From the NCBI GenBank assembly GCA_043822705.1, contig JBDRBK010000211.1, positions 1 to 38,126 on the forward strand: a stretch of 38,126 bases of DNA. The letters are read 5' to 3'. A program made the translations under genes and the position numbers. This DNA is from Fidelibacterota bacterium (lineage in GTDB: Bacteria > Fidelibacterota > Marinisomatia > Marinisomatales > TCS56). The notes beneath the pieces were generated by a model that saw nothing but the letters and a program-made list of their open reading frames with translations, did no database searches and was not told the DNA's origin. Shown here piece by piece: positions 6,806 to 33,345 of this stretch (positions are counted from its first letter, which is position 1; each line of letters starts with the position of its first letter).

Positions 6806-7396
6806 ATTGACCTCGATTTGTTGCTCCGGCATTTTGCTTTTTTGAGTATCCGATGAATGACTGAAAGTTGCAAAAATGCCGATAGCGGATAAGCAGATAT
6901 GCAGATACTCAAGTTCTAATATACAGTCTGTTGGCACACAAAACAACCATAAGGCATTAATATTCTTTTGAATAATCGACCAGGAATAACCGGTTATCCA
7001 GATTGTGCGCAGCCCCACAAATGTCTGTATATTTGACTTTAACTACTGATTTATTTTTTAAAATAAATTAAATTCACTTGAGTAATTGTTGGATTACTGG
7101 TCCGACACCGGAATTAATCGATTGATCGAGTAAATAATTGCGCTTGATTCCCGTAGCTCTGTTTACAAATCCGTTCGCAGTGTTCACGATTTCCAATTTG
7201 GCAGCTAAAAAATTGGAATACCTGCTGGTAACAGGCCCAATGGAACAATGGGCAGGCCAACGATTTTGTCGACAAATGAACAAACTATGACTATGCGCAA
7301 AACCGGTAAAAATTTTAAAGTAAATAACAATTATCGGAACTATAAAATCATCCGGTGTATTGTTGTGTTTTTGGAAAAATGCTAATGGAGGCAAAT

Positions 7397-10300: not shown

Positions 10301-12034
10301 TTGATAATCCGCTCCAATGATCCCCTCCAACGGAAAATTGTGCTTCCGGTGGAATTTTTTGTGGATGGGCCGATGCCGACCGTGGATTTGCTGCCGGCAA
10401 ATATCGATCTATCGTTGAAGGCCAACGAAATCGACACCAGCCTGAGCGTCAACATCGCTAACAACGGTGACGCGGATCTGTTGTGGTCCTTGCGGATCGA
10501 TAACCCCAATCCCGAGACTGTAACTTTCACGAAGGAAGACTGGGCGGACTGGTATCTGCCGCAAAACCAGGACCGGATTACTAACAGTGTCTGGATTACC
10601 CGGGCCGATTTCCGCGGTATATTTAACATGGCCCGTGAATCAAGCTACAGCGATGGAGATCGTGCCCTTGCACCGCCCTTGGGCGGCGATGGTGCTTCTC
10701 CGATTGGCACTGTTTGGGCTCCGGGACCCACCAACAATGTACGTCCTGAGATGTACACCAGTTGGGAAAATGCTGTCAATGAAAATCCGCCGGCTTCGGT
10801 AGGCAGGACCTATTCGATGTACCTGTACTGGGATAACCTGTACTTCGATGTCACCTTCAATCATTGGACGATCGGTGAATATGGTGGCGGCGGTGGTTTC
10901 TCCTACACCCGTACCCAGGTTGGTGCGCCATGGTTGGAAACCGCATCCCGTGATGGGCAGGTACCATTCGGTACGGCCCAGGACGTGAAACTGAAGTTTG
11001 ATACCTACAACATGCCCGGCGGTGATTATTACGCCAATATTTTTGTGCGCAGTAACGGCTACGACGGCGCCGAAGGTATGATTCCGATCCACTTGTTCGT
11101 GGATGGTCCCGTCCATACTCCGGTGATCACCGGGGTTGTCGATGTGCCAGCCGATCAGGGCGGTTGGGTCCGCGTTTTCTTTAATCGCAGTTTCTTCGAT
11201 ACCGATGTGCCTGCCGACCCAACCCGGGCGGCCGAAGCCTACACGGTTGAGATAAACGATGGCAGCGGCTGGACCGCCGCCACGACAACTGTGGCATATG
11301 GTCAGGAAAGCTATTCCGTACTGGTGCCGACCACCCGAGACTCGATCAATGCCGAACAGAATGGCATCATCGGATTCAGGGTCGTAGCCGGACTGGAAGA
11401 AGGCAACTGGATCAGTGCCGCAATGGAAGGTTATTCCGTTGATAATATCGCGCCTATGGCACCGACCGGTTTATTGGCAGCTGTGTCCGAAGGGGCGGTT
11501 AACCTGACCTGGGATGAATCCGCAGCCGAAGATCTGGGCTATTTCAAGGTTTATCGCAGCGCGGTCGATAATTTCGTTCCGTCAACAGAAAATCTGATTG
11601 GCACTACCGAAACGACCCTGTTTGTCGATACGGAGATATCGCAGGTTGGCCAGTACTATTACCGGGTATCGGCCATGGACGCCAACGGCAATGAGAGTGA
11701 GTATTCGACGGTGACGATGGTTGTGTTGTCCGCCGAAGATGGTTTTGGTCTGCCGCGGAAATTCGCCCTGCACCATAACTATCCGAATCCGTTTAACCCG
11801 GTTACCAGCATCCGTTACGACCTGCCTGCGCAGGCTTTTGTACGGATCAGGGTTTTCGACCTGTTGGGCAAGGAAATCGCCACGCTGGTGAACGGAACCC
11901 AGGAAGCCGGTTACCAGTCGGTCCGCTGGAACGCCACCGACCGTTTCGGACAACCGGTCAGCGCCGGTGTCTATCTGTACCAGATTCAGGCTGGTGAATT
12001 CAGTCAGACCTATAAAATGGTACTGTTGAAATAA
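7397..12034 (+). CDS. Large secreted repeat protein: 5x (Ig-like + inserted unknown domain), FN3, T9SS/FlgD CTD
   Basis: ATG 7397 follows GGAGG; signal peptide ends IWA-Q. Five ~243-aa repeats, an FN3-like APMAPTGL...YYYRVSAMDANGNESEYS module, and a YPNPFNP CTD. Confidence 0.9.
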   Translation: MQNRKWSLLTILLLMTFIWAQPDISVAPLQFDIALSHYTNDLVADCTLSITDNGDGLEFGWQEIDSNPTLTFTKADYADWTLPQNQDRISSSVWIARKDNQSLYNAASEVGYNNPYYNDPISPAGTLWHFDGIVPVRGISTGPAGYWSFVQANNYDPQSIIGVPGSLFLVADSVFLDIVFHSFSGGNTGGGFSYTRESYGVPWMTVEDMSVRAGSWALNVNFDATNLVKGNYAASIVITSNDADTPEITIPVSLTVDGPVPVVSVTPVAIDAGTLVQGESDSTTHKIVITNTGDADLYWNLSFEDLTPGEEIYFEKQDYANWNLPENQDRITDDVWLTRQNNNGLFNIAVEGSCDDYTSPSGTEWWWGPTNQFDPTEDSYEAFKPAANFELSDLPESVMSLHLIDEDRYYDVYFHDWSCCDNGGFAYTRMTPDYKWIGGSKIDGIVPGTSTETVRVLSVGQSDTVDVYFMSGRIPGGDYSGNLTLQTNDPLNPEIVIPVQLNIFVPPPIAAVNVESIDAGTLIQGESDVTTHKIILTNTGEGDLNWRAKFIDNSPVAVYFEKANYADRMLPENQDFITENVILTRADEEGLFNIAQEYYYTDNNSPYGTEWSSYPTSESSPEDYGSWRNNAHPYNGGPGLGAPTSLHLIDEDIYFDVIFHTWTSGEDEGGGGFSYTRSTPQYHWIDAEMNSGVIPGYGSLRTLSVGQSDTIDLYFYSEDIPGGDYWGDIIIKTNDPVNPEFVIPVTLNIYEPLPVISVDVTAINGTASLYDEIATDTEQITITNSGDADLIIEMTLEGGGIPVTFTKMDYADYTNPANQDYITENVIITRQTYQGIFNIAVEASYDRNYGRYAPTGTLWARGATKFAHPESYTTWYNATNRLYQNGMNEVFSMYLTEDDLYFDVVFHQWTAGGQGGGFSYTRTPAYPGWVWLPVANDTITYDQPDRAAETYAVEFDATGLEPGYYHSELIIRSNDPLQRKIVLPVEFFVDGPMPTVDLLPANIDLSLKANEIDTSLSVNIANNGDADLLWSLRIDNPNPETVTFTKEDWADWYLPQNQDRITNSVWITRADFRGIFNMARESSYSDGDRALAPPLGGDGASPIGTVWAPGPTNNVRPEMYTSWENAVNENPPASVGRTYSMYLYWDNLYFDVTFNHWTIGEYGGGGGFSYTRTQVGAPWLETASRDGQVPFGTAQDVKLKFDTYNMPGGDYYANIFVRSNGYDGAEGMIPIHLFVDGPVHTPVITGVVDVPADQGGWVRVFFNRSFFDTDVPADPTRAAEAYTVEINDGSGWTAATTTVAYGQESYSVLVPTTRDSINAEQNGIIGFRVVAGLEEGNWISAAMEGYSVDNIAPMAPTGLLAAVSEGAVNLTWDESAAEDLGYFKVYRSAVDNFVPSTENLIGTTETTLFVDTEISQVGQYYYRVSAMDANGNESEYSTVTMVVLSAEDGFGLPRKFALHHNYPNPFNPVTSIRYDLPAQAFVRIRVFDLLGKEIATLVNGTQEAGYQSVRWNATDRFGQPVSAGVYLYQIQAGEFSQTYKMVLLK
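11752..12034 (+). repeat. 283-bp direct repeat copy 1 (encodes the T9SS CTD)
   Basis: Matches 13565-13847 except for 5 substitutions found by manual comparison. Confidence 0.95.
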
Positions 12035-12056
12035 CCACGGATTTACTAACAGGTGT

Positions 12057-12091
12057 AAAAGCGCCGGTCAGTGATGACCGGCGCTTTTTTT
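12057..12091 (+). terminator. Intrinsic terminator
   Basis: AAAAGCGCCGGTCA-GTGA-TGACCGGCGCTTTTTTT perfect stem with T-tract. Confidence 0.9.
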
Positions 12092-12173
12092 ATTTCAGGA
12101 AAGGATCACAAATCAAGTTGAACTTTTGGGCGGAGACTTGCTAAACTGCACCATTGTCAGAAGGAGTGTAATT

Positions 12174-13847
12174 TTGCGCGTATATCAAATGTCATCCGGT
12201 TATTATTCAGTGATTTTCATTTCATGGTTGGTGATTGCCGCTAATTTCATTTCTGCTACTGATCCGACTGTGGGTTTATTGCAGAATGAGCCGGACTCAT
12301 TTATTGGTTATACTCTTTATACACCGAAATTATGCACTGGTACCTACCTGATAGATAATAATGGTTTGCTGATAAATCAGTGGCAGTCTGATTACACTCC
12401 GTCGGCTTGTGTATATTTACTGGAGAATGGGAACATCTTTCGAGCCACCGGCTTACCGGACCCGGCAGGCGGGGGCGGCGGATTTCAGGAAATAAGCTGG
12501 ACGGGCGAGGTGCTCTGGGAATACGTTTACGGAACCCAGCATCATGACATCGAACCAATGCCAAATGGCAACGTGCTCTTGATTACCAACGATATTAAGG
12601 AATATGATGAATTAATCGCCGCTGGTCGCGATTCGACCCTGATTGATGATGTTATCAGATCATTGACAATTCTTGAGATCGCCAGGAATGACACCGGGGG
12701 CGGGGACATTGTCTGGGCCTGGAATGCCTGGGATCATTTAATTCAGGATTATGATTCCACCAAGCCCGATTATGGTGTAGTTGCCGACCATCCGGAATTG
12801 ATCGACTTAAATTTTGCTGAAGATGGCAACAGTGACTGGATTCATCCCAATTCGATTGATTATAATCCGGATTTCGACCAAGTGATGGTCAGTTGCCGAG
12901 GTTTCAGTGAATTATGGGTGATCGATCACAGCACTACCACCGATGACGCGGCGAAGCATAGTGGTGGTAATAGCGGAAAGGGTGGTGATATTTTATATCG
13001 CTGGGGCAATCCGCGCAGTTATAGTGCCGGTGACTTAGAGGATCAACAGCTTTTTTCCCAGCACAGTGTATGCTGGATTGAACCTGGTATGCCGGGTGCG
13101 GGGAATATTCTAATCTTTAACAATGGACTTGACCGGCCGGCCGGTGTGTTTTCCTCAGTGGTGGAAATAACTACACCAGTGGATGCCCAGGGTAATTACC
13201 CTCTACTACCAGATTCAGCATTCGCTCCGCTGGAACCGGTCTGGATTTATATAGCTGAGACACCAGAGGATTTTTATTCACCCAAATTTTCCAGTGCCCA
13301 AAGATTTCCCAATGGTAATACACTGATCTGTTCCGGCGTCGGTGGTAAGTTCTTTGAGATTGACAGTCTGGGCAATACGGTCTGGCAATATATTAGCCCG
13401 GTCACGCCCTCCGGTCCGGTCTACCAGGGAGCGACGGTTAAAAAGAACGATGTTTATAGTTGTATTCGATATGCGCCTGATTATCCGGGATTAGCAGGGA
13501 AGGATCTTACGCCGGGTGACCCAATCGAATTATATGTTGTCGGTTTAACCGAAAGTTTACCGGCGCCGCGGAAATTCGCCCTGCACCATAACTATCCGAA
13601 TCCGTTTAACCCGGTTACCAGCATCCGTTACGACCTGCCTGCGCAGGCTTTTGTACGGATCAGGGTTTTCGACCTGTTGGGCAAGGAAATCGCCGTACTG
13701 GTGAACGGAACCCAGGAAGCCGGTTACCAGTCGGTCCGCTGGTACGCCACCGACCGTTTCGGACAACCGGTCAGCGCCGGTGTCTATCTGTACCAGATTC
13801 AGGCCGGTGAATTCAGTCAGACCTATAAAATGGTACTGTTGAAATAA
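12174..13847 (+). CDS. Arylsulfotransferase (ASST) family protein with T9SS CTD
   Basis: Motifs QHHDIEPMPNGNVL, DWIHPNSIDY, ILYRWGNP, QHSVCWI, FNNG and SSAQRFPNGNTLI. Start is uncertain: TTG 12174 follows AAGGAG; ATG 12189 is an alternative. Confidence 0.85.
   Translation: MRVYQMSSGYYSVIFISWLVIAANFISATDPTVGLLQNEPDSFIGYTLYTPKLCTGTYLIDNNGLLINQWQSDYTPSACVYLLENGNIFRATGLPDPAGGGGGFQEISWTGEVLWEYVYGTQHHDIEPMPNGNVLLITNDIKEYDELIAAGRDSTLIDDVIRSLTILEIARNDTGGGDIVWAWNAWDHLIQDYDSTKPDYGVVADHPELIDLNFAEDGNSDWIHPNSIDYNPDFDQVMVSCRGFSELWVIDHSTTTDDAAKHSGGNSGKGGDILYRWGNPRSYSAGDLEDQQLFSQHSVCWIEPGMPGAGNILIFNNGLDRPAGVFSSVVEITTPVDAQGNYPLLPDSAFAPLEPVWIYIAETPEDFYSPKFSSAQRFPNGNTLICSGVGGKFFEIDSLGNTVWQYISPVTPSGPVYQGATVKKNDVYSCIRYAPDYPGLAGKDLTPGDPIELYVVGLTESLPAPRKFALHHNYPNPFNPVTSIRYDLPAQAFVRIRVFDLLGKEIAVLVNGTQEAGYQSVRWYATDRFGQPVSAGVYLYQIQAGEFSQTYKMVLLK
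13565..13847 (+). repeat. 283-bp direct repeat copy 2 (encodes the T9SS CTD)
   Basis: Near-identical to 11752-12034; identity ends at the stop codon. Confidence 0.95.
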
Positions 13848-18964: not shown

Positions 18965-19222
18965 ATGAATAGCAGACAACACCTCCGGAAACAGAATCTA
19001 CCCGAGCCCCGGCAGTATCGAATTGAAGTGGAAGGGCTGGTCGGGAAAAAATGGCAGGACTGGTTTGATGGATTCCAAATATCCTACAACGGCGTTAATA
19101 CGATCATTGCCGGTAATGTCAAAGACCAGCCCGAGCTTCATGGAATACTGACCAGAATCCGTGATCTGAACCTGACCCTGGTGGCTGTGCAGCGCCAAGG
19201 TCCAGCAAATGTGGAGAAATAA
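18965..19222 (+). CDS. Small conserved hypothetical protein (ferredoxin/ACT-like pattern), of the type seen next to MalT-like regulators
   Basis: YRIEVEG.....WQDWFDG......TII.G.V.DQ.ELHGIL.RIRDL.L.LV.V pattern. Start is ATG 18965 or GTG 18938. Confidence 0.75.
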   Translation: MNSRQHLRKQNLPEPRQYRIEVEGLVGKKWQDWFDGFQISYNGVNTIIAGNVKDQPELHGILTRIRDLNLTLVAVQRQGPANVEK

Positions 19223-19223
19223 A

Positions 19224-19982
19224 ATGCGACGTCTTATAGCAATCAATCTGGCGTTAATAATCGCCCTGCCGCTTTTCGGACAGGAACTGACCGGACCGGA
19301 AATTATCCGCAAGGTGAATGATTTGTTCAACCCTCAAACCAGTTATGGTGTGTCCAAAATGACGATCGTCACCACCGGTGGCGATACGCGAACCCTGGTC
19401 AGCGAATCCTGGTCCAAAGGCGCCGGTGAAAAGACCCTGGTGCGCTATCTGGAACCAGCCCGGGTCAAAGGCCAGGCGGTGCTGATGCTGAACAACGCCG
19501 ATGATATCTGGGCCTATTTCCCCCGCACCGGCCGGGTTCGCAAGCTGGCTTCCCACGCCAAGAAGCAGAAAATGCAGGGTAGCGATTTCTCCTATGAAGA
19601 CATGGGCGGAGGCGATGCTTTTATCGATGAATACCTCGCCAGGCGCTTGGAGGATGAAAAAATCGACGCTCAGAACTGCTACACCGTGGAGTTAACCCGC
19701 AAGCCGGACAGTGACCAGACCTACTCACGCCTGATTCTCCGGGTAGTGAAAGAAAATTTTGTGCCAATCGCGATCGATTATTACAGTGAAAATGATCCGA
19801 CGCTCAATGAAAAGCAACTGGTTCAAAGCGATATTCGGGAGATTGACGGGTTGCCAACGGCCTTTAAGATTGTGATGTACAATAAGCTGGACAATACCAG
19901 CACCATGATGGAAATGCTGGAAGTGCAGTACAATCTGGAACTGGATGATGAAATGTTTACCGAAAGGAACCTGAAAAAATGA
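19224..19982 (+). CDS. Outer membrane lipoprotein-sorting protein (LolA-like)
   Basis: Signal peptide; YLEPARVKG..VL....DDIWAYFP..GRVRKL.......MQGSDFSYEDM; ends FTERNL. Confidence 0.88.
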   Translation: MRRLIAINLALIIALPLFGQELTGPEIIRKVNDLFNPQTSYGVSKMTIVTTGGDTRTLVSESWSKGAGEKTLVRYLEPARVKGQAVLMLNNADDIWAYFPRTGRVRKLASHAKKQKMQGSDFSYEDMGGGDAFIDEYLARRLEDEKIDAQNCYTVELTRKPDSDQTYSRLILRVVKENFVPIAIDYYSENDPTLNEKQLVQSDIREIDGLPTAFKIVMYNKLDNTSTMMEMLEVQYNLELDDEMFTERNLKK

Positions 19983-21157
19983 GATGCCTGCTAATCATCT
20001 TAACCCTGGTAGGAATGACGACACTACAGGCCGGGGATGCAGAACTGTTCGGCTATTACGAATCCCAGTATATGGGCAGTGAAATCGGTGAAACCTATTA
20101 TCAGGTTTATTCCAACAAGTTGCGGATTGACCTGTCGGGCGGGTTGTCGGAACGGATTACCTTTGCCGCCAATTTCGATTACATCACCTACAACGGGAAA
20201 ACTGTCTGGAATATCCTGGACCTGCTGGACGCAACGATTGCGGCCCAGGTTCCGGCCGGCGCCGAAGGATTCTTCGTGTTTCCGTTTCAGGATCGGAATT
20301 TCCTGGACAATGCCTACCTCAAACTGGCGTTCGATCGCTTTGATCTGACGGTTGGTAAACAGCAGCTGGCTCTGGGAACCGGTTATGCCTGGAATCCCCT
20401 GGATGTCTTCAATGTGAAGGACCTGCTGGATCCGTCCTACGAACAACCGGGGCATAATGCTGTGCGGATTGATTTCCCCATTTCCCGCTCTTTTAATCTA
20501 ACGGTGTTGGTAAGTCCTGAGGATACCTGGGATAATTCCGATAAAATGGTTGAGCTGAAAGGTCGCTTGGGCCGTTTCGATTTCAGTGTCAATGCCATCG
20601 AAAAACTGTGGTCGTACACTGATTTCATGACGCTCGATCCGGTTATCGGCTTCCCGGCGACAGCGGAGCGTCGTCGCCTGGCCGGTTTCAGCACCGCTGG
20701 CGAACTGTTGGGCCTCGGTCTCTGGGCTGAGTATGGCTACAACGACCTGTCCGTGAGCGAAGATTTCTATGAGCTGGCGGCCGGAATCGATTATACCCTG
20801 GATTGGGGCACCTATCTGATGGCTGAATATTTTTGTTATTCCGCCGGGAAAACTGCGGTGACCGATTATACGCTCAATGACTGGATGCGCGTTTACGCCA
20901 ATGAACAGAAAGCGCTGTCGCGGGACCAACTCTATCTGTTTGCCATGCATCCGCTGACCGATTTGACTGTGGCCAGCCTGTCCACGATTATCAACATTTC
21001 CGATGGCAGTACGGCGCTGGTGCCGGCCCTGGAATACAGCTTTTCCGACAATGTTGAAATCACCGCCTACGCCAGTTTCAATCTGGGTAAAGCCGGTACG
21101 GTTTTCGATAGCGACCAGGGAAAAGGTGGAATTATCCGAGTACGGGTATATTTCTGA
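19979..21157 (+). CDS. Putative outer-membrane beta-barrel protein
   Basis: Signal peptide, LTVGKQQL..GTG..WNP.D motif, amphipathic strands, C-terminal RVRVYF BAM-type signal; ATGA overlap with the upstream gene. Confidence 0.75.
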   Translation: MRCLLIILTLVGMTTLQAGDAELFGYYESQYMGSEIGETYYQVYSNKLRIDLSGGLSERITFAANFDYITYNGKTVWNILDLLDATIAAQVPAGAEGFFVFPFQDRNFLDNAYLKLAFDRFDLTVGKQQLALGTGYAWNPLDVFNVKDLLDPSYEQPGHNAVRIDFPISRSFNLTVLVSPEDTWDNSDKMVELKGRLGRFDFSVNAIEKLWSYTDFMTLDPVIGFPATAERRRLAGFSTAGELLGLGLWAEYGYNDLSVSEDFYELAAGIDYTLDWGTYLMAEYFCYSAGKTAVTDYTLNDWMRVYANEQKALSRDQLYLFAMHPLTDLTVASLSTIINISDGSTALVPALEYSFSDNVEITAYASFNLGKAGTVFDSDQGKGGIIRVRVYF

Positions 21158-21178
21158 TGCGGGTAATAAACAAATATC

Positions 21179-21229
21179 ATGTCACCCTGAGCTTGTCGAA
21201 CGATGAATTATTCCGGTTCATGGTTCGAC
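21179..21229. repeat. REP-like element (truncated doublet)
   Basis: ATGTCACCCTGAGCTTGTCGAA followed by CGATGAA...TTCATGGTTCGAC, which folds back on it. Related to the reverse complement of 26969-26996. Confidence 0.65.
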
Positions 21230-21274
21230 GACTGCCAAGAGTGAATCCAAGAATTAACCAAACTGGAGTGAAAA

Positions 21275-24118
21275 ATGCGTGACCGAATTTTAAGCAAACT
21301 GGCCCACTGGCATAGCGGGCACCCTTGGCAGATTCTGGGGATTTCCCTGCTGATTACAATTATCATGATGATCCTGGCCGGGAACCTGACGATAACCATG
21401 CGGACGTCCGATGTCCTGCCGGAAGATGACCCCAAGGTGGCCCAGTTCAATAAAATCATCGATGAATTCGCCACCGCCACCAGCATGGTGGTGGTCGTAC
21501 AGGGCGAAGAACAGGCCATTAAAGATTTTGCCGACGATCTGGCGCCGAAAATGCTGGAACTGAAGGACCGCTCGCACAACGACCGGTACCGGGCCCAGAT
21601 TGCCGACCGGGAGGCCAAAATCGAGCGACTGCTCGAAAAACCGGGACGGGGCGACCAGATTGCCGGACTGCGAAAGGAAATTCGGGAATATGAGGGCCTG
21701 ATCGATTTTCCGCTGTACCAGCGTATCGATTACAAGATATCTAAGGAATTCATCGAAGATTACGGTTTGATGCTGATCAAATCCGCCGATCTGGAAACGT
21801 CCCGGGATATGTTTGCGGATCCCAATCTGTCCGGGTTGCTGACCAACCTGAATAATTCACTGGAAGCAGAATACGTAGGGCAGGAAGAATCGATTTCCAC
21901 CCGCGAAAAGGAAGATGGGGCGGTGAACTTTCTCGACGGCATCCAGAATCTCCTGATCCACCTGCAGAAAAGCGCCGCGGGGCAACCGCTGACTGAGGCC
22001 GAAATTCAGGCCGTGGCGGATAAACTGCTGTTCGGTGAACCCTATATGTTGAGTTACGATAAGACCGCCCTGATCCTGAACGGCATACCGTCATTCACAC
22101 TCTGGGATCGCGACCTGCTGATGAGTTGCACGATCGAGACTCAGCAACTGGTGGACGAGCTGCTGCCAAATCATCCCGGCGTTCGCGTCGGGCTGGCCGG
22201 TTCGATCGCCAAGGAACACGATGAACAGGTTTACGGCACTCAAACACTGGGTAGTTCGACATTGATTGCCATGGTCGTGATCCTGGCGCTGCTGATGGTT
22301 TCCTTCCGGATGTGGCTGGCGCCGGTGCTGGCGCTGGTGAACCTGATCGTCGGCATCATCTGGGCATCGGGACTAGCCTACCTGCTGGTAGAGCAGCTAA
22401 ACATGCTGACTTCGATTTTCTCGGTGATCCTGTTCGGACTGGGTATCGATTTCTCGATCCACCTGATCAGCGGTTTCACCGAACGGCGGGCCCGGGGCGA
22501 TTCGATCGAAAACGCCCTTGATGGCACATTCAAGAAAACCGGCAAGGGTATCCTGACCGGCGGACTGACCACGGCCTTCGCTTTTCTGGCGCTGCTGGTC
22601 AGCCAGTCCCGCGGGATGAAGGAGATGGGCATTGTCATCGGTGTGGGACTGTTGTCGGTGTTGTTGGCGACCTTGGTTTTCCTGCCGACCCTGCTGGTAT
22701 TCCGCGAGCGGCGGATCGACCGTCGGCAGGTCCGCTATCCGGAAAAAGGTAAAATCAACCGGCGCGATCTGTCCTTCAAATTCATGGGTGCTGCCGCCGA
22801 GTGGGCCAGCCGCCATTATATCCTGTCGATTTCCAGCTCGCTGGTAGTCACTGCCGTGCTGGTATTTTCGGCTTTCCAGATCAAATGGGATTACGACTAT
22901 CGCAGCATGGAACCGGAAGGACTGGTCTCGATCGCTTTGATCGATACGGTCATGGAAAAATTTGATCTTTCCATGGATTACGCCCTGGTGATTACCGACG
23001 ATATCGAGGAATCGCGGATGCTGGCGGAACAGTACCGTGAAATGCCGACGGTGGCTCTGACAGACGATATTTCTCAGTTTTTGCCATCCCCGGAAGAACA
23101 GGCCCGCCGCCGGCACCAGGTGGATGATATCCGCCTGGAGATGGCCGGCGCCACTTTGCGCCGGAGTATTACAGCGGATGAACTGGAAACCATCCGCACC
23201 GAGATCGGGCGGCTGGAGATGAATATCATTGAGATGCAGGATATGGCCTTCATCGGCGGTCAAGACAAGGTGGATGTGAAATGCAAATCCATTGTTGGCG
23301 ATCCCGATCGACCCACGGCCGGTAACCTGATGGCCGGACTGCTGGCGACCCTGGAATCCGGTGACCCGGCGCTAGTCACCGGCCTGAGCCGGTTCCAGCG
23401 CAGTTTCACGCCGCATTACCAGCAGGCTGTGGTCCGTATGGCGACAACCACACCATTCGCGCTCAGCGATTTGCCGGTCTGGGTTCTGGACCGCTATGCC
23501 AATAATGACCGCGACCAGTTCCTGATCACCGTTTATCCTTCCGGCAGTATTTATGACGGCGAATTCCTGAACCGCTTTGCTGCCGATGTGGAAAAGGTGA
23601 GTGAAAAAGGCACGGGACTGGCGCCGCTGATGGTCGCCCTGCTGGATATATTCGGCCGGGACGGCCGCAACGCCATTATACTGACGATGATGATCGTACT
23701 GTTACTGCTGCTGATCGATTTCAAACGATTCAGTCTGGCGCTGATGGCCTTCGTGCCCCTGATTCTGGGCTTTTTCTGGATGCTGGGGCTGATGTACCTG
23801 ACGAAAATCCCCCTTAATATCATGACAGTGATGGGCCTGCCGCTGATCATCGGCATCGGGATCGACGATGGCGTGCACATCATCCACCGCTGGGTGGCGG
23901 AGGGCCGGGGTCAGGTGCGGACGATATTTGCCAGTACCGGCAAGGCGATCTTCCTGACCTCGCTAACCACCATGTTCGCCTTCGGGTCGATGCTGTTCTC
24001 GGTCTTCCCGGCCTACGGTCAATTCGGCGGCGCGCTCTTCCTGGGCGTGCTGGCGTGCTTTCTGACCTCGGTGGTGATCCTGCCGGGCCTGATCGGCTGG
24101 ATGGAACGGAAGAAGTAA
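21275..24118 (+). CDS. MMPL/RND family transporter (HpnN-like architecture)
   Basis: Two halves, each with a large periplasmic loop and TM bundle; GLGIDFSIH and GIGIDDGVH motifs, TGK.I...LTT..AF. Confidence 0.92.
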   Translation: MRDRILSKLAHWHSGHPWQILGISLLITIIMMILAGNLTITMRTSDVLPEDDPKVAQFNKIIDEFATATSMVVVVQGEEQAIKDFADDLAPKMLELKDRSHNDRYRAQIADREAKIERLLEKPGRGDQIAGLRKEIREYEGLIDFPLYQRIDYKISKEFIEDYGLMLIKSADLETSRDMFADPNLSGLLTNLNNSLEAEYVGQEESISTREKEDGAVNFLDGIQNLLIHLQKSAAGQPLTEAEIQAVADKLLFGEPYMLSYDKTALILNGIPSFTLWDRDLLMSCTIETQQLVDELLPNHPGVRVGLAGSIAKEHDEQVYGTQTLGSSTLIAMVVILALLMVSFRMWLAPVLALVNLIVGIIWASGLAYLLVEQLNMLTSIFSVILFGLGIDFSIHLISGFTERRARGDSIENALDGTFKKTGKGILTGGLTTAFAFLALLVSQSRGMKEMGIVIGVGLLSVLLATLVFLPTLLVFRERRIDRRQVRYPEKGKINRRDLSFKFMGAAAEWASRHYILSISSSLVVTAVLVFSAFQIKWDYDYRSMEPEGLVSIALIDTVMEKFDLSMDYALVITDDIEESRMLAEQYREMPTVALTDDISQFLPSPEEQARRRHQVDDIRLEMAGATLRRSITADELETIRTEIGRLEMNIIEMQDMAFIGGQDKVDVKCKSIVGDPDRPTAGNLMAGLLATLESGDPALVTGLSRFQRSFTPHYQQAVVRMATTTPFALSDLPVWVLDRYANNDRDQFLITVYPSGSIYDGEFLNRFAADVEKVSEKGTGLAPLMVALLDIFGRDGRNAIILTMMIVLLLLLIDFKRFSLALMAFVPLILGFFWMLGLMYLTKIPLNIMTVMGLPLIIGIGIDDGVHIIHRWVAEGRGQVRTIFASTGKAIFLTSLTTMFAFGSMLFSVFPAYGQFGGALFLGVLACFLTSVVILPGLIGWMERKK

Positions 24119-27220: not shown

Positions 27221-27276
27221 TTGAAGCGCGATATAATTATTGTTAACTTGTGGCACACAATTAACATTCGTAACAC
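27221..27276 (+). promoter_or_regulatory. nikR promoter and NikR operator 1
   Basis: TTGAAG-17 bp-TAACTT, then GTGGCAC-N13-GTAACAC (27250-27276) abutting the ATG. Confidence 0.75.
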
Positions 27277-27693
27277 ATGCCCAACCTGATCAGATTCGGT
27301 GTCTCAATTGAAAACTCCCTGCTGGAGGAGTTCGACCAGTTCATCCGGGAGCGTAACTATACCAATCGCTCCGAGGCCCTGCGGGACCTGATCCGCGAGG
27401 CCCTGGTGGACGAGGAATGGTCCCAGAATGACATCATCGCCGGCGGGATCGCCTTCGTGTACGACCACCATCAGCGCGAATTGGTGAACAAGCTGCTTAA
27501 CATCCAGCATGATTACCACGATACGGTGATTTCATCCCAGCATGTCCATCTGGATCATGACAACTGCCTTGAAATCGTAGTGGTGAAAGGTCCGGCCGAA
27601 CAGGTGATGGCACTGTACCACGGACTGAAGTCGCTCAAGGGCGTCAAACACATCGATCTGATCAAATCAACCATTGGCGAACGTATTAAGTAA
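27277..27693 (+). CDS. nikR: Nickel-responsive transcriptional regulator NikR
   Basis: RHH motif RFGVSI...LL..FD......YTNRSEALRDLIR; Ni ligand region YDHH...IQH...HVHLDHDNCLE. Confidence 0.97.
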   Translation: MPNLIRFGVSIENSLLEEFDQFIRERNYTNRSEALRDLIREALVDEEWSQNDIIAGGIAFVYDHHQRELVNKLLNIQHDYHDTVISSQHVHLDHDNCLEIVVVKGPAEQVMALYHGLKSLKGVKHIDLIKSTIGERIK

Positions 27694-27710
27694 TATTTTT
27701 TTAAACCATC

Positions 27711-27737
27711 GTGTTACTAATACCAAAAACGTAATAT
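27711..27737 (+). promoter_or_regulatory. NikR operator 2
   Basis: GTGTTAC-N13-GTAATAT upstream of the TonB-dependent receptor. Confidence 0.8.
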
Positions 27738-27756
27738 TTGAAAGCTGGGGAATTGC

Positions 27757-29595
27757 ATGTCTGATAAAAAAACCATTTTAATTATCCTGTTATTTTTTAC
27801 GGTAATCTGGGGACAACACCTGCCACGGGGTTACTATTCCCAGCGCGACTCGGCCTGGATTCATGAAATGGATTCCGTGTTTGTGGAAGGCCTGCGTTCG
27901 GCTTCGCTTTCGACAACGACCCGGATCACCGTAGCACAGGAAAGAATCGAGGCAATGGCCTACCGGGACTTGAATGAGGTACTGGTCAACGAAGTACCCG
28001 GTGTTTTCGGTACCGAAAAAGGGGTTATGGGCTACGGTGTCTCCGGCGGATCGGCCGGCAAACTGACCCTGCGCGGCCAGGGCGGCGACCCCACTACCGG
28101 TGTTTTAATCGTTCAGAATGGCAAGCCGGAAATCATGGGTCTCATGGGGCACCCGGTGCCCGATGCCTATGCCGCTGACGTGATCAGCGAAGTCGAGATC
28201 ATCAAAGGCGCCGCCTCAATCCTCTATGGTACCAATGCCCTGGGCGGGGCCATCAATATGAAGACCCGGCGAGTGGCGGTCCAGGGGTTGGAAACCCGCC
28301 TGCGGCTGTCCGGCGGCAGTTATGGTGTCCGGCGAATGGTTTTCCAGCATGGCGGCCGACTGGGGCAATGGGATTATTTCGCCACCTATGGCAGTCGATC
28401 CACCAATGGTCACCGGCCACACAGCGCGTTTGATTCACAGGCCTGGCACCTGCGGGTAGGCTATGAAATTAATCCCGATTTTTACCTGGCGCTGGTCGGT
28501 AAATCGGTACCGTTTCATATGGAAGACCCCGGTCCTGAAGGCGGCGTCACGGGCCTGGAATATGATATTACGCGGTCTGACCTGACACTCACGGCCCGCA
28601 TCGATTTAACCACGATCAAGCTGGACTACCTGATTTTTCATAATCTCGGCGAACATGAAATCTCCGATGGCTTCCATTCCACGGATTTCTGCGATGGTCT
28701 GATCCTCAAACATCATTTTCATTTATTGAAGGGTAATTCGACCACAGTCGGATTGGACTATAAAAACTACGGTGGAAAATTAATTGCCGTATTTAAACCA
28801 GGTCTTGTCGGTGAAAAATTCACGGTGACTGAAACCGCCGGCTATCTGCTCAGCGAACAGAATCTGGGGCGACTGACGACATCGGCCGGATTGCGTCGGG
28901 AAATCCACAGTGAATTCGGAGCAGTGATCGTACCGTACTTGGGAGCTTCCTTCCGGATAAATGAACGGTTGATGCTAACCGGTTCCCAGGGCAGCGGTTT
29001 TCGCAGTCCGACCATCCGTGAACTGTACCTGTTTCCGGCCCCCAATACTGAACTCAAATCGGAACAGTCGAAGACCTCCGAGCTGGGCTTGAATTACCGG
29101 CCGGGACGCAGGTTGACGGTCGATCTGACGACTTATCGATCAAGTGGTCATGACCGGATCGAGACCGTCGGCATCTGGCCCAATCAGGAATTGCGTAATT
29201 CCGGGGAATTCGACTACCGCGGTCTCGACCTCGCCTTGAAACTGAACCCCCGGCGCGGCCTGCATCTGGGGCTGAATGCCGGCTGGTTCGGGTCCGACAA
29301 TCCGGTCGTCAACCAGCCCGAATGGCAACTGAGTTCGACGCTGGGCTATCATCGCCAGTATTTCACCATCCGTGGCAATCTGAAACAGGTGGTCGGCGTA
29401 AAATATTTTGACAGCGGCGCTTATCACCGGTTGCCGGCCTACAGTGTCGTTAACATGGGAATCGAGGTAACGCCGATTAAAACGCTGGCATTGAACCTGC
29501 AGGTTAAGAACCTGCTGAACAGCGATTACCAGTCGATGGTTGGCTTTCCCCTGCCGGGCCGGTCGCTGGAAGGGGGCGTCTTCTTTGATTTCTGA
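27757..29595 (+). CDS. TonB-dependent receptor, probably for nickel or a metal complex
   Basis: Signal peptide, TonB-box-like DSVFV, plug motif VEIIKGAASILYGTNALGGAIN, GFRSPTIRELY, NLLN..Y, PGRS...F C-terminus. Confidence 0.93.
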   Translation: MSDKKTILIILLFFTVIWGQHLPRGYYSQRDSAWIHEMDSVFVEGLRSASLSTTTRITVAQERIEAMAYRDLNEVLVNEVPGVFGTEKGVMGYGVSGGSAGKLTLRGQGGDPTTGVLIVQNGKPEIMGLMGHPVPDAYAADVISEVEIIKGAASILYGTNALGGAINMKTRRVAVQGLETRLRLSGGSYGVRRMVFQHGGRLGQWDYFATYGSRSTNGHRPHSAFDSQAWHLRVGYEINPDFYLALVGKSVPFHMEDPGPEGGVTGLEYDITRSDLTLTARIDLTTIKLDYLIFHNLGEHEISDGFHSTDFCDGLILKHHFHLLKGNSTTVGLDYKNYGGKLIAVFKPGLVGEKFTVTETAGYLLSEQNLGRLTTSAGLRREIHSEFGAVIVPYLGASFRINERLMLTGSQGSGFRSPTIRELYLFPAPNTELKSEQSKTSELGLNYRPGRRLTVDLTTYRSSGHDRIETVGIWPNQELRNSGEFDYRGLDLALKLNPRRGLHLGLNAGWFGSDNPVVNQPEWQLSSTLGYHRQYFTIRGNLKQVVGVKYFDSGAYHRLPAYSVVNMGIEVTPIKTLALNLQVKNLLNSDYQSMVGFPLPGRSLEGGVFFDF

Positions 29596-30121
29596 TAAAC
29601 CACGGCCGGTGACACCTGATCTGATACTGGGGGCGGTCTTTCTGGTCCTGGCGCTGACCTTTCCGGTGTTGTTTCATCTGGTCCATCTGGGATCAACCTT
29701 TTTACCGCTGTTTTTTCCGATTGCCCTGGCCGGCCTGCTGGTACGGCCGGGCGTGGCGGCTACAGTCGGTCTCTTGGCACCGATTCTATCCGGAGTACTG
29801 ACCGGGATGCCGCCGTTTTATCCACCGATAGCACCCCAGATGGCTGCCGAAGGCGCGGTACTTGGGGGGAGTATCGCCCTGTTAAGGCGGCACTGGGGCT
29901 TCGGTGTTGTGGGCAGTTTGGTCGGCGGAATCCTGGCTCAGCGTGTCGTACTGGCAGCACTGGTATTTTTGATTGCGCCGCTGTTTCATCTGCCGCCGGG
30001 AATTTATACCGGTGCCAAAATCGTGTCGGGTATTCCCGGTTTGATCCTCCAACTGGTCGGAATACCGCCACTGGTTAAATTACTGGAGCCGCGCATTCGA
30101 CAAATGTGGGAGGTGGCGTGA
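29585..30121 (+). CDS. ECF transporter S component
   Basis: Hydrophobic ~180 aa; P.LFH....G..FLP.F.P..LAG, P.LS..LTGMPP..P....M..E, PG..LQL..IP. Start uncertain (TTG 29585 or GTG 29609). Confidence 0.8.
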   Translation: MISDKPRPVTPDLILGAVFLVLALTFPVLFHLVHLGSTFLPLFFPIALAGLLVRPGVAATVGLLAPILSGVLTGMPPFYPPIAPQMAAEGAVLGGSIALLRRHWGFGVVGSLVGGILAQRVVLAALVFLIAPLFHLPPGIYTGAKIVSGIPGLILQLVGIPPLVKLLEPRIRQMWEVA

Positions 30122-30717
30122 GGACCGACCCGGATTTACGGAAGCACTTTTTTGATAAGCTGGCACCGACCTGGGAGAATTCAGCCAAATTCAAACCGGA
30201 GCAGCAACGCCTCGCCCGGATGATCGCCGATTTTCGAATTTATCCCGGCGACAGTGTCCTGGATGTTGGCACCGGCACCGGAATTGCGCTGCCGGCGCTG
30301 GTAAACGCAGTCGGCAAAACGGGTCGGGTCACCGGCCTGGATGTGTCGGAGAAAATGGTGACTGAAGCTCGGAAGATTCACCACGATGTGCAGGTTGGTG
30401 ATATCCGGAATCCGCCTTTTGCCGCCGCCAGTTTTAACCTGGTGCTGGCATTTGCCGTCCTGCCGCACCTGGATGATCCGGGCAGATTTTTTATGGCCGT
30501 CCAGCGGATATTAAAACCGGTCGGTCACCTGATTATCCTGCATTTCATGTCGCGGGTAATCTGCAACGATTTTCACCGCAACGCCGGTACGGCGGTGGAG
30601 CATGATCTGCTACCCCGACCCGAGGAATTGGACCGGCTGGCCAATAGCGCCGGTTTGACTCCGGTCTTATTTGAGGAAACGGACGATCTGTTTCTGTGGC
30701 AGGCGCAAAAACCTTGA
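30118..30717 (+). CDS. Class I SAM-dependent methyltransferase (UbiE/Methyltransf_11-like)
   Basis: FFDKLAPTW, VLDVGTGTG, GLDVSEKM, LKP.G.LII.H; GTGA overlap with the upstream stop. Confidence 0.9.
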   Translation: MRTDPDLRKHFFDKLAPTWENSAKFKPEQQRLARMIADFRIYPGDSVLDVGTGTGIALPALVNAVGKTGRVTGLDVSEKMVTEARKIHHDVQVGDIRNPPFAAASFNLVLAFAVLPHLDDPGRFFMAVQRILKPVGHLIILHFMSRVICNDFHRNAGTAVEHDLLPRPEELDRLANSAGLTPVLFEETDDLFLWQAQKP

Positions 30718-31427
30718 CTTCGTCCTGGTTGGATGTAACCGCGATCGACAGCCGCCTGCGGTTCATTTTGGCGGTCAGCGGTGTGGTGTCAATCGGTGTT
30801 TTTCCAGTAAACCATCCTGCCAGGCTGATCTGGTATCTGGTGGCTGCTATCCTGATATATTGTAACACGCCCGGCACCCGCGTTCCCCGAACTGTCGGCG
30901 GAATTTTATTATCCACGGTGCTGTTTTTCGGTCTGGCACCGGCGTTGAGCAGTCTGCTGGGGTGGTCGGATGCGGCGGTAATGTCCGAGTTGTATTTTGG
31001 TTTGAGCGTCACCGCCAAAACCGTGGCGATATTTTTCTGGATTTATTCAATGATCGGCCTGCCGGGAATCAGCCGGTTGTTGTTGACATTGAAGCAATTG
31101 CGGGTTCCGGATGAAGTCTTGTTCATGCTGATGATAGCCGTGCGTTATTTCCAACGTTTTGTCTACCTGGCCCGGCAAATGGGTGAGGCCCGCAGCCTGC
31201 GTCTGCACGGCGCGCCGCACTGGCGCGGCCTGTCCGCACTCACCAGCAAATTGGCCATAATCGCCGTGGACCATGCCGGAGCCGTGTATCAGTCCGTTTT
31301 GCTGCGCGGCGGCGGGGTTGTGCTGCCATTGATTCCGGAGCCGACCCGCACGCCGGTCCACGGGTGGGCGGGAATTGCCGGAGTCAGTGTTCTGATTATT
31401 CCCTGGTTGATCAGCGGAGTCGGGTAA
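30714..31427 (+). CDS. ECF transporter T component (CbiQ/NikQ-like)
   Basis: D.RL, LL..L.QLRVP.....M..IAVRY, AR.LR and V.LRG arginine motifs. Start TTG 30714 (overlap) or 30696. Confidence 0.82.
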   Translation: MTSSWLDVTAIDSRLRFILAVSGVVSIGVFPVNHPARLIWYLVAAILIYCNTPGTRVPRTVGGILLSTVLFFGLAPALSSLLGWSDAAVMSELYFGLSVTAKTVAIFFWIYSMIGLPGISRLLLTLKQLRVPDEVLFMLMIAVRYFQRFVYLARQMGEARSLRLHGAPHWRGLSALTSKLAIIAVDHAGAVYQSVLLRGGGVVLPLIPEPTRTPVHGWAGIAGVSVLIIPWLISGVG

Positions 31428-31428
31428 A

Positions 31429-32055
31429 ATGCCGGCGGCGATTGAAATCAGCAATTATTCATTCAGTTACACAGCAGACCAGCCGGTGCTGGACAAATTT
31501 TCATTGACGCTGCCGGCCGGTGAAAAAATGGCCTTGCTGGGGCGAAACGGTGCCGGCAAAAGTACGCTTTTGCGCTCCATTGTGGGATTGCTGAAAGGCA
31601 GCGGATCGATCCGCGTCAACGGAATGGAAGTGGAACGCCGAACGCTGAAACAGATTCGCCGGCAGGTGGGATTTTTATTTCAAGATCCCCAGGTGCAGTT
31701 GTTTTGTCCCACGGTGATCGAAGACGTCACCTTCGGTCCATTGAACATCCACGGACAATTTGAGCAAGCCCGGACCACAGCTAAAAAAGCTTTGGAACAG
31801 GTGGGATACGACGGCGGATACTACCGTCCTTGCCACAACCTGAGTCTGGGAGAAATGCGCAAAGTGGCCCTGGCGGGAGTGCTGGCCTGCCGGCCTCAAA
31901 TTCTTTTGCTGGATGAGCCGGATTCCTACCTGGATCGGGAGGGGCGCCGACAGTTGGTGAAAGTAATCCGCGGATTACGGAATGAAACGGTTTTGCTGGT
32001 GACCCATGACCGGCGTTTTGCCCGGCAGGTTTGCCAGGGAATGGTTTTGCTGTAA
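31429..32055 (+). CDS. ECF transporter ATPase (CbiO/NikO-like)
   Basis: GRNGAGKST, VGFLFQDP..QLFCPTV.EDV.FGP.N, LSLGE, LLLDEP, VTHD. Confidence 0.93.
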   Translation: MPAAIEISNYSFSYTADQPVLDKFSLTLPAGEKMALLGRNGAGKSTLLRSIVGLLKGSGSIRVNGMEVERRTLKQIRRQVGFLFQDPQVQLFCPTVIEDVTFGPLNIHGQFEQARTTAKKALEQVGYDGGYYRPCHNLSLGEMRKVALAGVLACRPQILLLDEPDSYLDREGRRQLVKVIRGLRNETVLLVTHDRRFARQVCQGMVLL

Positions 32056-32140: not shown

Positions 32141-32470
32141 ATGGTTGTAGCAAAAACAAAGGGATTCGCGGCTGAGGATGTGGGACTGGCCGACGTAGCC
32201 AAGGCGTTGGGACATCCGGCGCGAATCCGAATTCTGAAAATCCTCACCGACGTGGACATTTGCATGTGCGGTGCTATCGTCGATCAGTTGCCCCTATCCC
32301 AGGCCACCGTTTCCCAGCATCTGAAGGAACTGAAACGGGTGGGACTGATCCAGGGTACGGTAGAAGGCCCTAAAACCTGCTATTGTATCGACCGAAAGCG
32401 AATCGAAGAAATTAAGGAAAACTTTGCGAATTTGTTTTCCAAAGTGGGTTGCGGCTGCGGCTGCAAATAA
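32141..32470 (+). CDS. arsR: ArsR/SmtB family regulator
   Basis: AKALGHPARIRIL, CMCG.IV..LPLSQATVSQHLKELK, CYC, C-terminal CGCGCK. Confidence 0.92.
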   Translation: MVVAKTKGFAAEDVGLADVAKALGHPARIRILKILTDVDICMCGAIVDQLPLSQATVSQHLKELKRVGLIQGTVEGPKTCYCIDRKRIEEIKENFANLFSKVGCGCGCK

Positions 32471-32479
32471 GGAGGTAGT

Positions 32480-33286
32480 ATGAATAATCAGGAACAGATT
32501 AAATCAATTGTAAAAGAAAAATACAGTGGTATTGCCCGTAAAAAAGTGGCGCCCTGTTGCGCCGCTGAACAATCCTGTTGCGGCTCGGTCGAGGACGGTG
32601 AATACACCTTCATGGGCGAGAAATATTCCAATATGGAGGGCTATGTGCCGGAAGCGGATTTGGGTCTGGGTTGCGGCCTGCCCACCGAGCATGCGGGAAT
32701 AAAGGCCGGTCACACCGTGGTTGATCTGGGCTCCGGGGCGGGCAATGACGTGTTCGTGGCCCGGTCGCTGGTGGGTGAAACCGGCCGGGTGATTGGCATT
32801 GATATGACCGAAGCCATGATTGACCTGGCCAAAAAGAATAACGCCAAACTGGGCTATGGAAATATTGAATTCTTACTGGGCGAAATTGAAAATCTGCCGG
32901 TCGCAGCGGAATTTGCCGATGTGGTTATCAGTAATTGCGTCCTGAATCTGGTGCCCGATAAGGGAAAGGCGTTTGCAGAGATATTTCGAGTGCTGAAATC
33001 CGGGGGACATTTCTGTATATCGGATATTGTTCTCAACGGTGAATTGCCGGAGAAGCTCAGGCAATCGGCGGAAATGTATGCCGGTTGCGTCGCCGGCGCC
33101 CTGCAGGAAGCTGACTACCTGCGGATCATCGCCGACAGCGGATTCAAGGGAGTGGAAATCAGGAAACGAACCCTGATCGAAATTCCCGATGATGTGCTGG
33201 AGGAATACCTGACTACTGATCAAATCGAAGCAATGAAAGTCCGTGATATTGGAATCATCAGTCTTACTGTTGTCGGGTATAAATAA
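32480..33286 (+). CDS. arsM: Arsenite S-adenosylmethionine methyltransferase
   Basis: VKEKY..IA, CC..CC, LGLGCGLP, VVDLGSGAGND, IGIDMT, ISNCVLNL.PDK, GCVAGAL; downstream of arsR. Confidence 0.93.
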   Translation: MNNQEQIKSIVKEKYSGIARKKVAPCCAAEQSCCGSVEDGEYTFMGEKYSNMEGYVPEADLGLGCGLPTEHAGIKAGHTVVDLGSGAGNDVFVARSLVGETGRVIGIDMTEAMIDLAKKNNAKLGYGNIEFLLGEIENLPVAAEFADVVISNCVLNLVPDKGKAFAEIFRVLKSGGHFCISDIVLNGELPEKLRQSAEMYAGCVAGALQEADYLRIIADSGFKGVEIRKRTLIEIPDDVLEEYLTTDQIEAMKVRDIGIISLTVVGYK

Positions 33287-33320: not shown

Positions 33321-33345
33321 AAGCCCCCGGCACTGTCGGGGGCTT
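33321..33345 (+). terminator. Intrinsic terminator
   Basis: AAGCCCCCGGCA-C-TGTCGGGGGCTT followed by an AT-rich/T tract. Confidence 0.75.

Follow-up and report, generated by a model that had tools for sequence, protein, structure and literature searches.

We describe a six-gene operon from a Fidelibacterota bacterium, in which a nickel-responsive repressor of the NikR family and a TonB-dependent receptor (TBDR) are combined with an energy-coupling factor (ECF) transporter and a class I methyltransferase (MT) dependent on S-adenosylmethionine (SAM). It lies in a stretch of 38,126 nucleotides (contig JBDRBK010000211.1, assembly GCA_043822705.1), the whole of which we call the window. From its regulatory sites, those of its relatives and the association of the MT with [NiFe]-hydrogenases, the operon very probably imports nickel. 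Comparison of related loci establishes that the MT, and not the ECF transporter, is the constant partner of three uptake architectures; an earlier note, made from the letters of the window, had presented the system as an ECF importer with an embedded MT, a framing that has to be given up, as the MT is no accessory of the ECF transporter. The module is real and widespread, and possibly adds a new enzymatic step to known kinds of transporters. As to mechanism, we incline, with somewhat less than even confidence, to a scheme in which nickel enters on a small organic carrier that is methylated afterwards for release of the metal.

The operon, its relatives and its component families

The genes for NikR, the TBDR, the S component, the MT, the T component and the ATPase are adjacent or overlapping on the plus strand between 27277 and 32055 (Table 1), and the GTG start codon of the MT gene at 30118 overlaps the stop codon of the S gene. 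This agrees with the earlier note, which had the receptor, S component, MT, T component and one ATPase overlapping or abutting, placed them under NikR control, and saw no gene for NikN, NikL or CbiN; no open reading frame for any of these was found in the operon, the six genes leave no room for one between them, and no small gene recurs inside the operon in related loci. NikR residues H78, H89, H91 and C97 are invariant in 23 aligned rows. The window contains two matches, with two mismatches each, to the delta-proteobacterial NikR operator consensus GTGTTAC-N13/14-GTAACAC (PMC545781; this and the other cited papers are drawn on by excerpt), against 0.05 expected by chance. Within the host genome, which is estimated to be 93% complete, operator 2 is the top-scoring NikR-type site (24.2 bits) and operator 1 ranks third; the second-best site is on contig C70 at position 81429 (18 bits). 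The position of operator 1, abutting the nikR start, recurs in a related locus (L004), and this site likely serves the autoregulation of nikR. With both the nickel-site residues and the operator present, a NikR regulon of the delta type is predicted, including binding and repression. A promoter scan gave no more matches than chance, and an Rfam search of the whole window recovered only a tRNA (2600-2671), with no cobalamin riboswitch.

Table 1. Genes and predicted NikR operators of the operon, by position in the window
Feature	Position	Strand	Remarks
NikR operator 1 (GTGGCAC-N13-GTAACAC)	27250..27276		touches nikR start codon; 2 mismatches to consensus
nikR, nickel-responsive repressor	27277..27693	+	NF003381 177 bits, cut-off 105
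NikR operator 2 (GTGTTAC-N13-GTAATAT)	27711..27737		19 nt upstream of TBDR start; 2 mismatches
TBDR, 612 aa	27757..29595	+	plug PF07715 and barrel PF00593
ECF S component, 170 aa	29609..30121	+	group-II fold; FH-LG-F-PM and GMPP-YPP-M-E motifs
Class I SAM-dependent MT, 199 aa	30118..30717	+	PF08241 72 bits
ECF T component, start uncertain	30696..31427	+	PF02361 32.5 bits; TIGR02454 36.5 bits, under cut-off
Single ECF ATPase, 208 aa	31429..32055	+	PF00005; TIGR04521/TIGR01166 under cut-off

A scan of species-representative genomes yielded 248 relatives, of which the best 80 loci, close kin and one duplicated pair included, were retained; they span Spirochaetota, Myxococcota, Aminicenantes, Verrucomicrobiota, Bacteroidota, Calditrichota, Planctomycetota, Sumerlaeota and others. 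The MT gene begins at most about 200 nucleotides from the stop of the S gene in 78 of the 80, is fused to the S gene in locus L077 and is missing in L046. Thus, the expectation of the earlier note that the MT is a conserved member of the operon held in 79/80 loci; its proposed co-occurrence of all four of TBDR, S component, MT and NikR was looser, with a TBDR, in at least one case unrelated, at 64/80 loci and nikR at 22/80, and the MT also occurs without the S component. Upstream sequence of 500 nucleotides or more is available for 66 loci, and 19 of these are preceded by an operator with an N13 spacer and no more than two mismatches; the corresponding figures are 0-2 loci for spacers of 11, 12, 14, 15 and 16, and 0.2 for local shuffles. 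With a leave-one-out matrix, a site of at least 12 bits is seen before 27/66 loci, including 14 of the 44 without a nearby nikR, and in none of 81 coding controls, which were not matched in composition. On such evidence from sequence, NikR control appears borne out both here and in relatives. No cobalamin riboswitch was found on the operon strand either in 35 loci picked for their weak NikR evidence or in 18 further ones; the only two seen are in L019, on the opposite strand, where they point toward a receptor gene that runs divergently.

The most likely start codon of the S component is GTG 29609 and not the TTG 29540 chosen by the ORF finder, as a 170-residue product is on record at 100% identity. 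Its N-terminus reads MTPDLIL, which confirms the absence of the Met-His motif remarked on earlier. NikM and CbiM have an N-terminal Met-His metal site and an extra N-terminal helix. PF01891, the NikM/CbiM family, was matched by none of 62 S homologs at E<=0.05, the window copy included, while PF12822 was matched by 51 of the 62 (best E 4e-11) and by the window copy at 26-27 bits, under the gathering cut-off of 30.7. Against PDB sequences the S profile retrieved nothing at E<=10. The structural model (pLDDT 93) has the six-helix fold and superposes best on PanT (4rfs; Z 16.6, rmsd 2.8 over 164 residues) and RibU (5kbw; Z 16.5); the group-I chains 4m5c, which we take to be NikM, and 5x3x_M score lower (Z 11.4 and 10.4), and their alignments begin only at residue 36 of the former and residue 39 of the latter. 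The fit to BtuM (Z 8.9) and CbrT (Z 6.6) is poorer still, and the top rows of a Foldseek search were all S components, at E 7.5e-3 or weaker. As it has no PF01891 match, fits PanT and RibU best and aligns with group-I chains only beyond their N-termini, the S component is not NikM/CbiM; the prediction of a non-NikM S component was correct, and its fold is of the vitamin type. Its conserved positions are H23 (82/82), M34 (81/82), M67 (81/81), M78 (79/81), E81 (72/81) and R112 (81/81), along with Y71. By homology, they would sit at the outer loops and helix 4, and they fit ligation of a metal, as a bare ion or partly chelated; they are not typical of a vitamin pocket.

The MT is modeled with confidence (pLDDT 97) as an ordinary class I fold with intact SAM motifs, namely GxGxG and the acidic residue after strand 2 (G51, G53 and D75 in 76/76 rows). 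In addition, the family has residues of its own, W19, P116-H117, H142, N150, H153 and D163, whose conservation among 129 rows is 126 for W19, 129 for H117, 126 for H142, 120 for N150, 129 for H153 and 117 for D163; H142, N150, H153 and D163 are not shared by 41 other MTs from the same loci. Judging from their position in the fold, His117, His142, Asn150, His153 and Asp163 should line the acceptor pocket, and this set of three histidines, an asparagine and an aspartate suggests that the substrate is, or carries, a metal. Fold searches returned generic class I enzymes only (Z 18-22), which name no substrate, and the best score among the named equivalogs UbiE/MenG, ArsM, BioC, CpaM and DVU_1556 was 67 bits against a cut-off of 155. 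The MT has no signal peptide and, in L077, is fused to the C-terminus of the S component, which is cytoplasmic in solved S components.

The TBDR profile is nearest to BtuB (4e-56) and PqqU (4.5e-51), nearer than to CntO or OprC, and the closeness of these two scores implies that the likeness to BtuB is generic. The receptor falls far under every NCBIfam cut-off (84.8 against 599.7 bits for TIGR01779, the BtuB model), its relatives conserve H132, H300, D304 and M599 among other residues, and by these sequence features it forms a subfamily of its own. Its nearest solved relatives carry organic cofactors. The ATPase conserves the Walker A and B motifs, LSxG and the histidine in the alignment.

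The methyltransferase in three uptake architectures

The 129 family MTs, not deduplicated, comprise 87 encoded beside an S component, 13 beside an ABC-3 permease, 24 beside a TBDR and 5 unplaced. Thermohalobacter berrensis is a candidate cultured carrier of the MT. Among 151 genomes of the host phylum, the MT profile has 31 matches and the TBDR profile 32, with 31 in common. Besides the host, 30 genomes have the MT; the S component is present in just 3 of them and CbiM in 2. In the other 27, the MT gene directly follows the TBDR gene in 26 (in the last it stands at the start of its contig), and 23 have nikR ahead of these genes; all 23 have, by eye, a two-heptamer N13 site just before nikR, with variable orientation of the half-sites. 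Ten of these 27 ECF-less loci adjoin an Mrp-type hydrogenase cluster with HycI, and the large subunit has the L1 and L2 motifs (RICGIC and DPCYCC) in all three regions that reach it. PF00374, present in 94/151 genomes overall, occurs in 30 of the 31 with the MT, and the MT is present in just one of the 57 genomes that lack this domain, though kin among these genomes are not independent. The host genome itself encodes two [NiFe]-hydrogenase large subunits with L1 and L2 motifs, yet none of the NikM/CbiM, NiCoT and HupE importers was found in its 93% complete assembly.

In a second phylum, the MT was found in 14/151 genomes; 13 loci were examined, of which 6 are of the ECF type and 7 have the MT after an ABC-3 permease; a TBDR is visible in five of these 7, and nikR or an operator in most of those five. 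A third phylum gave 12 matches among 201 genomes, all of the ECF type. A scan of one of 64 parts of a metagenome collection, in which about 14 of 80 loci were family members, revealed a TBDR-less form in the order binding protein-ATPase-permease-MT (six loci, some partial), probably from Dehalococcoidia by likeness to P0172. The associated binding protein is of the ZnuA class, with CPGH, NxQ and NF invariant and HGxE and GNWM near-invariant in 52 rows; relative to the canonical ZnuA ligand set, it has lost three ligands of the free ion. In four TBDR-less loci, it is preceded by a gene for a Fur-family regulator whose best PDB match is 3eyy (E 1e-34; next 9e-26), the Streptomyces protein Nur (PMC7055735). 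The latter has an M-site of His33/86/88/90, a nickel site of His70/72/126 and a 6-5-6 box (PMC2691836). The regulator keeps equivalents of His33, 81, 88, 90 and 126. A Desulfovibrio box labelled Zur (ATGCAAC-nnn-GTTGCAT; PMC545781, Table 11) itself shares the 6-5-6 arrangement of the Nur box (PMC2691836), and the metal assigned to its regulator may merit reconsideration. Control by a B12 riboswitch or by Fur with no NikR link had been named at the outset as evidence against the nickel reading; no riboswitch was seen on the operon strand in the 53 loci scanned, but the Fur-family regulator does occur in the TBDR-less loci. Each of the three architectures includes loci with a nikR gene or an operator. 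The inner-membrane step thus appears, from gene content, to be exchangeable between an ECF transporter, a ZnuABC system of the CPGH type and a further unnamed route. In a FastTree phylogeny of 95 thinned rows, the ECF-less MTs form one clade (0.98) and the ABC-linked ones fall in two places; deep support is weak and the family is not cleanly split from the outgroup, and we draw no order of events from it.

The ECF-type loci show variations of their own. Two small families without Pfam matches, in 14 loci each, precede the TBDR in loci of the Myxococcota type (e.g., L049:3853-4434 and L025:4566-5099); in L044 and L078 the operator is upstream of them, and they are possibly lipoprotein partners of the receptor. 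In L061 (8139-8813) and 9 similar spirochaete loci, where the TBDR gene is convergent and downstream, a gene between those for the MT and the ATPase matches neither Pfam nor the T profile and might encode a very divergent T component. In L007-L009, L036, L056, L074 and L075, from Sumerlaeota, Calditrichaceae and KSB1, S-MT or TBDR-S-MT sets occur without an adjacent T component or ATPase, and possibly represent solitary S components. The TBDR gene and an S fragment are tandemly duplicated in L059 (1996-7059), and two near-identical operon copies share one contig in L012/L017.

Downstream of the operon, an arsR-type gene and an arsenite methyltransferase (NF008823, 331 bits, cut-off 263) occupy 32141-33286, followed by a strong hairpin at 33321-33345; we reject this pair as part of the system, for it is absent from the 80 related loci bar isolated unrelated matches. 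Elsewhere in the window, 4778-13847 and 19209-24118 encode three proteins with FlgD/Por-secretion C-terminal domains (746, 1559 and 573 aa) and a LolA-like and MMPL-type cluster. Public contigs include a relative that matches the operon along most of its length at about 93% identity, as well as two short pieces from RNA libraries, which give no evidence of transcription; public sequencing runs contain at most 0.15 of the words sought.

Cargo, mechanism and rival explanations

In the scheme that we favor, nickel-loaded NikR would repress nikR and the receptor operon through the operators observed before them. The TBDR would carry a nickel-ligand complex over the outer membrane; by homology, the S component may grip this complex via His23, Met34, Met67, Met78, Glu81 and Arg112, and the S-T-A2 assembly would flip it inward. 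The cytoplasmic MT, translationally coupled to the S component, could then hold the complex in its site of His117, His142, His153, Asn150 and Asp163 and methylate a donor atom, be it a thiolate, carboxylate or ring nitrogen, thereby lowering the affinity and releasing nickel, which would be supplied to the two hydrogenases of the host. Nickel, unlike iron, cannot be freed from a chelator by reduction, and users of siderophores rely on reduction or hydrolysis. Therefore, methylation of a carrier by a SAM-dependent enzyme would, if the scheme is true, be a new solution to the release of a redox-inert metal. The requisite chemistry exists, in that pyochelin loses its chelating activity once it is methylated by Spm (PMC10592502). 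An organic carrier would account for the need for a TBDR, for an S component of vitamin-type fold without NikN, for the incomplete ligand set of the binding protein and for the recurrence of one enzyme across three architectures and two regulator families. In its broadest form, many anaerobic lineages would use one organic nickel carrier, a dedicated receptor family, two unrelated inner-membrane binding proteins and release by methylation, a generalization about which we are more doubtful than about the scheme itself.

Several observations weigh against this scheme or against nickel as its metal. The conserved His and Met residues of the S component and the His and Asp residues of the TBDR suit a bare ion equally well, as do the ABC-3 partner and the Cys, His and Met residues of its binding protein. 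The window copy of the S component is the sole exception among 82 rows in having a leucine at the M34 position (codon CTG, 29708-29710; a natural variant or an assembly error). There is no matrix site of 12 bits or more in 39/66 loci, and neither nikR nor a site in 30/66. Two genomes (loci L105 and L106, also L152 and L153) have the operon without nikR or an operator and with a gap after the MT, and in both of them nikR precedes a cbiM/nikM-QO operon elsewhere. As the 27 genomes of the host phylum keep the MT without the S component or CbiM, the route over their inner membrane is left unexplained, and the MT is absent from 64 of the 94 hydrogenase-positive genomes. Finally, the Fur-family regulator lacks His70 and His72, its box (TTGCAA-N4-TTGCAA) has a spacer of 4 where that of Nur has 5, and zinc is a possible metal in the TBDR-less loci because the half-sites also form the box labelled Zur in PMC545781.

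The main rival to the organic-carrier scheme is that bare Ni2+ is carried, or a loose complex stripped at the S component or binding protein, the MT-fold protein serving in the cytoplasm as an acceptor or chaperone of nickel, or else methylating another substrate in a nickel-dependent reaction. ABC-3 permeases and ZnuABC systems usually move bare ions. The invariant soft-metal residues of the S component (H23, M34, M67, M78), the binding protein (CPGH, H78, M103) and the MT (three His) agree with this, and nickel-specific TBDRs are known (PMC11247825). However, a pure chaperone need not keep the SAM motifs that are invariant in 76/76 MTs, and the S component has neither the NikM N-terminus nor a NikN/CbiN partner, which are minimal for group-I ion transport (PMC7689651). 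We consider this rival unlikely, but the most serious of those weighed here.

A less probable alternative is that the MT makes a nickelophore in one step, such as a methylated histidine or thiol, which is secreted and recaptured by the TBDR. Methyltransferases build many metallophores (PMC10080011), the minimal nikR-TBDR-MT loci would then amount to a synthase with its receptor, and TBDR and MT track one to one. Against this, the neighbors of the operon include no recurrent exporter or further biosynthetic gene, nicotianamine synthase (PF03059, CntL-like) is absent from all five genomes searched, that of the host included, and the L077 fusion joins the MT to a subunit of the importer. Since the surroundings of the operon show no conserved gene for biosynthesis or export, the carrier in the scheme we favor is probably scavenged rather than self-made.

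It is still more improbable that the cargo is another metal, zinc or cobalt, or a mixed-metal complex, with NikR control being secondary in some lineages. The ZnuABC-type partner, the Zur-like half-sites and altered nickel site of the Fur-family regulator, and the loci lacking NikR evidence speak for it, whereas the presence of nikR genes or operators in all three architectures, the lack of an operon-strand cobalamin riboswitch in the 35 and 18 loci searched, and the clear preference of the Fur-family regulator for Nur among PDB matches oppose it. Least probable of all, by a small step, is that nickel is obtained by salvage of coenzyme F430 or another nickel tetrapyrrole made by methanogens. 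Though the TBDR profile is nearest BtuB, His and Met could be axial ligands, and the hosts are mostly of lineages from anoxic habitats, the BtuB match is generic, the S component fits BtuM and CbrT far less well than PanT and RibU, and the ABC variant uses a protein of the ZnuA and not the BtuF/HmuT class, all of which weakens the Ni-tetrapyrrole option offered in the earlier note.

Comparison with known systems

The nickel supply of anaerobes, where sulfide and organic matter bind the metal, is poorly known, and the present module is a candidate route in many phyla. The nickel uptake systems given in the relevant excerpts (PMC545781, PMC2667541, PMC7689651, PMC11247825) are NikMNQO/NikKLMQO, NikABCDE, NiCoT and several nickel TBDRs, and this module is not among them; the terms 'methyltransferase' and 'ECF' do not occur in the 2024 survey PMC11247825. 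We found no description of the operon in the literature, with most subscription papers, and supplements in which predicted regulons may be given, outside the scope of the search; to that extent, the proposal of a candidate undescribed nickel-acquisition route stands. The S component would be the first nickel-linked one outside NikM/CbiM in the literature searched, and the soluble MT of 199 residues offers a direct handle, as its substrate should identify the nickel carrier.

Among nickel-specific TBDRs, FrpB4, FecA3, NikH and CntO with pseudopaline (PMC11247825) share with this receptor the energized outer-membrane uptake, controlled by nickel or directed at a metal-metallophore complex; the present one belongs to a separate subfamily, has no accompanying nicotianamine-synthase genes of the staphylopine/pseudopaline Cnt type and is coupled to the MT. 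The staphylococcal enzyme Spm is likewise a SAM-dependent enzyme that ends chelation by a metallophore through methylation; the parallel with the scheme proposed here is one of chemistry, and Spm itself is TcmP-like and defensive (PMC10592502). ZnuABC/MntABC (PF01297, PF00950) and Streptomyces Nur have counterparts among the other partners of this MT family elsewhere, but there the motifs CPGH, HGxE, GNWM and NLQ replace the usual ligands of the binding protein, and the regulator differs from Nur in its nickel site and box spacer. With the group-II vitamin S components (PanT, RibU and ThiT, 3rlb; PF12822) our S component shares the six-helix fold and a weak PF12822 match, yet it is only 11-21% identical to them, has its own T component and ATPase, and combines invariant His and Met residues with nickel regulation.

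Closest in plan are the group-I ECF transporters NikMNQO/NikKLMQO and CbiMNQO (PMC545781, PMC7689651, PMC11247825), with which it shares a dedicated S component, a T component and a single ATPase, and in particular the NikR-regulated NikMNQO of delta-proteobacteria, with the same GTGTTAC-N13-GTAACAC operator and a probable supply to [NiFe]-hydrogenases. Unlike these, it has no PF01891 domain, no N, K or L subunit and an S component without the first ~35 residues of NikM/CbiM, and the TBDR and MT belong to the operon. Thus, the operon resembles NikMNQO in its regulation and probable purpose, and departs from it in three of the four defining features tested.

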